Positions 3,006 through 3,484 of a stretch of 3,484 nt of DNA are shown here, piece by piece. The notes below the pieces were generated by a model that was not told where the DNA came from, did no database searches, and saw only the letters and a list, made by a program, of their open reading frames with translations. The DNA lies in NCBI RefSeq assembly GCF_003334385.1, contig NZ_QOWN01000093.1; one strand, 5' to 3'. Position 1 is the stretch's first letter. Every line of letters starts with the position of its first letter. The position numbers and the translations under genes were made by a program. The DNA is from Escherichia coli (lineage in GTDB: Bacteria; Pseudomonadota; Gammaproteobacteria; Enterobacterales; Enterobacteriaceae).

Positions 3006-3218
3006 TCAGGTGACATATTTCCAGACGGAAGCCGGCACGCGATCGTAAAGTTTGTTCATTGTCAGTTCTGCCAGCCGGTGATCGACCGCAGAGTTAAAGG
3101 CTTCCAGCTCCGCAGGGGTAAGTTTATAACGTGTGTGGGAAATCACTTTTTCCAGCGTCTCCCGGGATGAACAACGACGGAACTGCTCTGGTTTTAACTT
3201 CCATTCGTCTCTCGTTAC
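3006..3218 (-). CDS. Hha/YmoA-family nucleoid-associated regulator homolog (~70 aa), without a canonical start codon at the expected position
   Basis: The reverse-strand frame ending at TGA 3008-3006 translates to ...[69 protein letters not shown]. This aligns along its length with E. coli Hha as I recall it (...[57 protein letters not shown]). Codon usage is good. An in-frame TGA at 3233-3231 bounds the frame upstream, and the codon at the expected initiator position is GTA (3218-3216). Confidence 0.6.
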
Positions 3219-3484
3219 TTTATGCTGTAATCAACGTGATACTGCCAGCATACCGCACCAGACTGACATTCTGGTACCCTCCCCAGACTCATTACTCCCG
3301 TGCAACCACTTAACCGGTCTCTCAGCAATATCGCCTTAACGCTACGTTTAGTTATCCGACACCGGATGTCCGATGCCATTGCGACAACCTGAAGGTAACC
3401 AGCCAGTTGTAGTGGCACACTAAATTTGGCCACCTGATGAAAGGTGATATTCTCACCACAACACAAAACAGGTGACTTAATGAA

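Follow-up and report, generated by a model that had tools for sequence, protein, structure and literature searches.

A probable frameshifted allele of the island-borne Hha paralogue gene hha2 in Escherichia coli

Known Hha paralogues and the island locus

Hha2 (EC042_4516) is a published paralogue of Hha in enteroaggregative E. coli (EAEC) 042 (Prieto et al. 2016, PMC4864382; Bernabeu et al. 2019, PMC6480617). Its gene and hha3 are horizontally acquired, flanked by insertion sequences and linked to the flu-yeeR cluster, and both are involved in the regulation of ag43 (PMC4864382, PMC6480617). In EAEC 042, hha2 occupies L024:48505-48717 and is matched exactly by both published hha2 primers (PMC4864382, Supplementary Table 1). 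Here we analyzed a 3,484-nt stretch of E. coli DNA (contig NZ_QOWN01000093.1; its full length is called the window), in which these primers match with 1 (forward) and 2 (reverse) mismatches. By DNA identity and conserved neighbours, the hha sequence on its minus strand is an orthologue of the hha2 island locus. The two loci have in common an HTH/AlpA-like regulator, hha, a small hypothetical gene, an inovirus Gp2-family gene and zinc-ribbon genes, all near Ag43/CP4-type island genes; unlike the core-genome hha, the window copy is an island-borne paralogue. It shares with Hha2 of EAEC 042 a core of 59 residues (one residue differs), a homologous leader and the ATG. However, Hha2 of EAEC 042 is encoded by an intact 70-aa ORF, whereas the window copy is frameshifted by the loss of 14 bp behind codon 6, its leader has GAGA in place of GAGG and GAA in place of TAA, and an IS3-family element is inserted ~205 bp upstream of the hha2 ATG.

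The window corresponds to coordinates 3847-7333 of locus L001 in strain G1/2, in reverse orientation and with 99.9% identity. It contains, in order, 304 codons from the C-terminal end of the IS66 transposase TnpC (26-940, at the low end), two zinc-ribbon genes, an inovirus-Gp2-family gene, a small membrane protein gene, the hha2 remnant and the IS3 terminus; in G1/2, an IS3-family transposase CDS abuts this last end. An earlier reading of the letters alone (hereafter the sequence-only reading) had proposed a mobile context, and the IS66 and IS3-family ends, together with a gene order as at EC042 hha2, agree with it. The window looks like a short assembly contig delimited by IS repeats, and the IS3 element may separate the hha2 remnant from its native promoter. 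A structured RNA or regulatory element in 3225-3484 was considered and rejected, since Rfam gave a chance hit only (E=0.33, a eukaryotic lncRNA model) and promoter and terminator scans of the same region found nothing. At the opposite end of the window, the second 'putative zinc ribbon protein' gene (976-1161, minus strand) is cut short by the IS66 insertion, and its counterpart in the identical G1/2 locus is, according to PGAP, a pseudogene that lacks the C-terminus.

Like the window copy, Hha3 (EC042_4796, WP_001344112.1) of EAEC 042 comes from an island, belongs to this family and has suffered damage at its 5' end; IS66, zinc-ribbon, Gp2 and hha genes follow one arrangement at both loci. 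It is a 58-aa ORF started by GTG, the first ~12 residues of which are unrelated to Hha, and it reaches the core frame via a 1-nt deletion, in contrast to the 14-bp deletion of the window. Hha3 therefore lacks helix 1 and part of helix 2. This allele type is present at L025:13133-13309 (E. coli 042) and L007:580-756, where both hha3 primers match exactly. A more distant comparison is provided by YdgT/Cnu (PDB 2JQT), which belongs to the same fold family and matches the window weakly (E=2.5e-10; 42-49 bits); because this score is far under the YdgT equivalog cut-off of 101 bits, the window copy is not an orthologue of ydgT.

Membership of the Hha/YmoA family, as claimed in the sequence-only reading, is well supported. 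Pfam HHA (PF05321) matches the 74-codon open frame of the window (3233-3006) at E=2.7e-27 over model positions 3-57 of 57, and NCBIfam NF008191 (hemolysin expression modulator Hha) scores it at 97.5 bits, the cut-off being 90; judged by these scores, the resemblance to Hha is well above chance. The core also aligns over ~58 residues with Hha of E. coli/Salmonella (PDB 1JW2, 2MW2, 4ICG) and YmoA of Yersinia (PDB 2K5S), one block of 14 residues being nearly identical. The claim that the encoded protein is full length has to be withdrawn: the similarity begins only at F13 of the translation given in the sequence-only reading, i.e. at NF008191 profile position 14 of 72, whereas intact Hha2 aligns from profile position 7. 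The 15 residues upstream of the matched part are non-homologous to Hha, and the helix-1 segment of Hha (TKTDYLMRL) is missing from the frame of the window core. A helix-1 segment K-x-[DE]-[WY]-L-x-x-[LF]-R-[RK]-C contiguous with the core is absent from this frame, and the window copy has no uninterrupted ORF of ~67-72 codons that is provided with a canonical start and a Shine-Dalgarno sequence. Within the core, a helix-3 block of 16 residues aligns with its Hha counterpart, a conservation of sequence only. This part of Hha includes D48 (A-D-H-R-L-A-E-L), which we take to be the acidic residue reported as essential for H-NS binding.

The start codon and the 14-bp deletion

Direct reading of the minus strand and the ORF list confirmed the facts about the frame on which the sequence-only reading was built. 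A TGA at 3233-3231 is followed by a frame of 74 codons that stays open as far as the stop at 3008-3006; no ATG, GTG or TTG was found in this frame upstream of GTG 3146-3144, which opens a 46-aa ORF; the triplet at 3218-3216 is GTA; and ATG 3204-3202 opens a frame of 26 codons that differs from that of the Hha core. The features of the locus are as follows, with the evidence for each in brackets.

3205-3233, minus strand: 5' leader, noncoding in intact orthologues (alignments, counts)
3202-3204, minus strand: ancestral ATG start of the hha2-type gene, still intact (aligns with the annotated starts of intact 70-aa hha)
3124-3204, minus strand: residual ATG frame, 26 codons and TAA (translation)
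3185-3186, minus strand: junction of the 14-bp deletion, where intact alleles hold AAGACTGGCTGTAT (alignments, junction counts)
3006-3185, minus strand: Hha core, 59 codons (QFRRCSS...SVWKYVT) and TGA (alignment, PGAP span, Pfam/NCBIfam, PDB Hha and YmoA)
3144-3155, minus strand: internal CTG 3155-3153 and GTG 3146-3144 (PGAP 150-nt CDS, ORF list)
3409-3484, no strand assigned: terminus of the IS3-family element (homology to the IS-free locus L002 ends at 3408)

To collect homologous loci, a query of 381 bp around the hha remnant was used, which occurs at 4828 places in 2975 of 5426 complete E. coli genomes, and 23 loci were aligned. Strains CB8671 (L004) and no107 (L005) carry intact hha genes of 213 nt that encode MEVKTKEDWLYQ[F/L]RRCSS..., and the intact orthologues, including Hha2 of EAEC 042, are 70 aa long with the N-terminus MEVKTKEDWLYQFRRC. 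The starts of these genes in CB8671 (L004:1622), no107 (L005:1622) and EAEC 042 (L024:48505) align with ATG 3204-3202. The very codon that had been set aside as out of frame, on the view that the gene has no canonical initiation codon, is therefore the start of the intact orthologues. Between 3186 and 3185, the window lacks the 14 bp present in intact alleles, namely the last base of codon 7, the whole of codons 8-11 (D-W-L-Y) and the initial base of codon 12. Outside this deletion, the DNA identity between the window and intact alleles is 88-96%, and the window core's amino-acid sequence equals that of one intact allele (L011). A loss of 14 bp does not amount to whole codons; the ATG frame is therefore closed after 26 codons, and the frame of the Hha core is a different one. 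Only the first five residues of the ATG frame (MEVKT) agree with the real protein, and its 26-residue peptide had no match in NCBIfam.

Comparison with outgroup proteins shows that the form with the 14 bp is ancestral and that a derived insertion is unlikely. Relatives of 67-69 aa in Salmonella, Klebsiella, Serratia, Rahnella and Yersinia all have an N-terminal K-x-[DE]-W-L...L-R-[RK]-C, and the solved structures of Hha and YmoA, which align with intact Hha2 from residue 5 (TKEDWLYQFRRC vs TKTDYLMRLRRC), likewise carry the helix-1 motif lost in the deletion. The window thus has a disabling lesion relative to intact E. coli alleles, with an ancestral state backed by outgroups, and with high confidence we regard the locus as a pseudogene, namely a frameshifted allele of the hha2 that was described in EAEC 042 as an island-borne paralogue of hha. 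The ancestral gene has 70 codons and starts at ATG 3204-3202; with the deletion, helix 1 has lost the codons of its beginning (E-D-W-L-Y) and the frame is shifted, ribosomes starting at this ATG would therefore produce a nonsense peptide of 26 residues, and the Hha core at 3185-3006 has no start codon of its own. It seems that no functional Hha-type protein is made from the window copy, and transcripts, if any, would give only the 26-residue peptide from the ATG.

The long open frame of the window is a product of changes in the leader. Intact alleles and most deleted alleles read TAATGG at the start, the TAA shutting the core frame just upstream. In the sub-lineage of the window, the alignments show GAATGG, together with changes of GAGAGG to GAGAGA and of GTG-ATG to GTA-ACG: the former TAA is GAA at 3206-3204, and the Shine-Dalgarno sequence is weakened (GAGAGA, 3213-3208, vs GAGAGG in intact alleles). 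A later T-to-G change that turned TAA into GAA extended the core frame up to the TGA at 3233, and the frame now looks deceptively like a full-length ORF that lacks an initiator. The apparent N-terminus of the 74-codon frame is the 5' leader and start region read in the wrong frame.

Two additional observations concern the leaders. Those of the intact alleles L004, L005 and L024 hold a mini-ORF, ATG-AGA-GGC-TAA, which contains the Shine-Dalgarno sequence GAGG and the stop of which overlaps the hha2 start (TAATG); at 3215-3204 in the window, it has ACG for the ATG and GAA for the TAA. This three-codon mini-ORF is probably coincidental, although it could be a coupling leader. The leader of L012 has a tandem duplication of 15 bp (AAGTGATGAGAGGCT twice).

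Alternative readings of the open frame

The sequence-only reading had offered a start-codon point mutation, a sequencing error or unusual initiation as explanations, with GTA 3218-3216 as the expected initiator. According to the first of these, the gene would be full length in the 3233-3006 frame and would have lost its initiator at GTA, and it gains something from alleles L002, L003 and L024, which have GTG and then ATG here (AAAGTGATGAGAGGCTAATGG). However, GTG-ATG in these alleles meets an in-frame TAA two codons on and cannot start the Hha frame, and the intact 70-aa alleles of CB8671 and no107 themselves have GTA in their leader (AAAGTAATGAGAGGCTAATGG). The triplet equivalent to GTA is untranslated leader in intact orthologues, where the gene starts elsewhere, at the ATG 14 nt downstream, and the profile similarity stops short of the GTA segment. 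Loss of a start codon at GTA is extremely improbable and is ruled out by the orthologue alignment; the lesion is the frameshifting deletion after codon 6. An error of sequencing or assembly in the window, for which nothing specific speaks beyond the fact that indels are a common type of error in general, is excluded by the identical 381-bp sequence in hundreds of independently finished genomes, by the exact 45-nt leader of the window in 628 of the 5426 complete genomes and by the deletion junction in 1746 of them. As for unusual initiation, nothing was found in its support. A recoding event, in which a +1 slip on GTT-AAA-ACC (A-AAA-C, 3195-3191) would lead ribosomes from the ATG frame into the Hha frame, is geometrically feasible, as tRNA-Lys slipping on the four A's would connect MEVK with PEQFRRC..., and a rare AGA codon lies one codon past the run, after ACC. 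Nevertheless, the run has just four A's and no stimulatory element, the AGA is unconserved (other deleted alleles have AAA or ACA), the deleted alleles L002 and L006 no longer have the ATG, and the product would still lack D-W-L-Y of helix 1. In view of the unconserved context and the loss of the ATG in some alleles, slippage was rejected as having hardly any chance of being correct.

More weight, though still little, attaches to two readings in which the core frame is translated after all. A point change in a start codon does distinguish the window from an annotated relative, but it lies at codon 3230-3228 and not at GTA: in strain EE72d (L018; 97.9% identical), the first codon after the TGA is TTG, and PGAP annotates a 74-aa 'hha' from it (L018:301-525), whereas the window has TTA. 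In this light, the dead gene may have been partly resurrected in the sub-lineage of the window, where the change of TAA to GAA would have restored a 74-codon, TTG-started Hha variant with a new N-terminus and the window would then have lost the start (TTG to TTA). Consistent with this are protein clusters P0013 and P0015 (70 and 30 members), an exact TTG version of the leader in 107 genomes, the G of outgroup alleles, which makes TTA look derived, and a chance DEW motif in the new N-terminus that recalls EDW. But there is no Shine-Dalgarno sequence upstream of the TTG (CAGTATCACGTTGA-TTG), which also stands right behind the stop codon in closed-frame alleles and is therefore not a feature evolved for initiation; a proline falls inside the would-be helix 1, and the new segment is unmatched by the Hha profile. 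The TTA form is, moreover, commoner than the TTG form (628 vs 107 genomes), and L006 pairs TTA with a closed TAA frame, which points to mosaicism instead of an ordered path. Nothing in evidence points to use of the TTG start, and we consider a re-opened gene quite unlikely. If it were true, a remodelled Hha-like partner of H-NS would be made from a database 'pseudogene', and, with the same small probability, the commoner TTA form may have been inactivated a second time or may be translated from a non-canonical start. Similarly doubtful is a useful truncated Hha from an internal start, CTG 3155 (49 aa) or GTG 3146 (46 aa). PGAP annotates 49-aa CDSs in L002, L003 and others, the corresponding protein clusters are large (P0061, 404 members; P0099, 354 contigs), the GTG has a GGAG upstream of it, deleted alleles show a low pN/pS, and the published Hha3 of strain 042 is itself a protein of 58 aa without helix 1. 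On the other hand, such a product would be deprived of helix 1 and of one half of helix 2, in a protein that normally has four helices and ~70 aa, it scores 75 bits, which is under the NCBIfam cut-off of 90, CTG is rare as an initiator, GGAG is badly spaced for CTG and GTG alike, the identical sequence is annotated as a pseudogene in other genomes, and recombination accounts for the low pN/pS.

Frequency, recombination and annotation

The frameshifted allele of hha2 is by no means rare. When short junction-spanning queries were compared with the 5426 complete E. coli genomes, the deleted junction was found at 2385 places in 1746 genomes and the intact junction at 815 places in 768 genomes, a ratio of places of about 3:1. 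About one third of complete E. coli genomes carry the deletion, which excludes an event confined to one strain, and the finding is an ordinary one.

The deletion is present on many different haplotypes, and one deleted allele (L019) is almost identical to the intact allele of CB8671. In the four-gamete test, it is incompatible with 39 of 57 informative sites, located on both sides and nearest at -31 and +43 columns. Direct reading of the alignment revealed no microhomology at the junction (...CCAAAG/AAGACTGGCTGTAT/CAG...), which cannot shift either way, and recurrent deletion by slipped mispairing was rejected for this reason. Because of the lack of microhomology and the four-gamete result, the simplest reading is one deletion event that was spread by homologous recombination between island copies. 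Pairwise pN/pS, from a small sample of 15 unique haplotypes, was 0.148 between deleted alleles and 0.069 between intact alleles, and the differences across deleted alleles are mostly synonymous. With recombination at work, this relaxation of about twofold is uninformative as to selection, and in so small a sample the values do not serve to test neutrality. Taken alone, the low pN/pS and the unchanged core of the window could suggest continued selection on the core frame; it is adequately explained, however, by movement of the deletion through recombination, as most synonymous diversity would then pre-date the arrival of the deletion on each haplotype. Further decay is found in several deleted alleles: the ATG has become ATA in L002 and L006, the latter with additional indels, and conserved residues are replaced at several places in L008 and L020.

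Two minor features of the alignment may be mentioned here. L006 (deleted) and L012 (intact junction) share core deletions of 5, 3 and 4 nt, which is further evidence of mosaic recombination and repeated decay. At window position 3188 (minus strand; the G of CCAGAG, 3 nt before the junction), deleted alleles have G (most), A (L008, L022 and L023) or C (L019), and all intact alleles examined have A at the equivalent position; the three states beside the deletion may be due to chance or a trace of the origin of the deletion.

Pseudogene status, one of the possibilities raised from the letters alone, is supported by the frameshift relative to intact orthologues and has a counterpart in RefSeq. Strain G1/2 has a 100% identical copy that PGAP labels 'hha, pseudogene, incomplete, missing N-terminus', and the span of this pseudogene (L001:4146-4325), at 809380-809559 in NZ_CP060083.1, is exactly window 3185-3006. 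This status is already known, as it concerns a widespread and RefSeq-annotated frameshift of a published gene, and no new biology is implied. The annotation of such alleles is nevertheless inconsistent: in L002 (1676-1825) and L003 (1671-1820), PGAP gives a 150-nt CDS of 49 aa with a CTG start, so that RefSeq holds three incompatible annotations of hha2 with the 14-bp deletion, i.e. a pseudogene, a 49-aa CTG CDS and a 74-aa TTG 'Hha'. Small differences in the leader determine which of them is applied, and the orthologue alignment shows that all three are the same 14-bp-deleted hha2.

The main value of the present analysis lies in annotation and in the reading of marker studies. In PMC4864382, hha2 and hha3 were put forward as markers with which virulent clones of E. 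coli could be recognized by PCR and BLAST; the BLASTN criterion given there, 90% identity and 80% coverage, would accept deleted alleles too. Every hha2 or hha3 primer of that paper has its site downstream of the 14-bp deletion (window 3006-3110), and the hha3 reverse primer matches the window exactly. Judging from these primer positions and thresholds, PCR or BLAST typing according to PMC4864382 cannot separate intact from frameshifted alleles. As deleted junctions are about three times as numerous as intact ones and both the primers and the BLASTN criterion are blind to the deletion, an 'hha2-positive' result will often represent a frameshifted copy.
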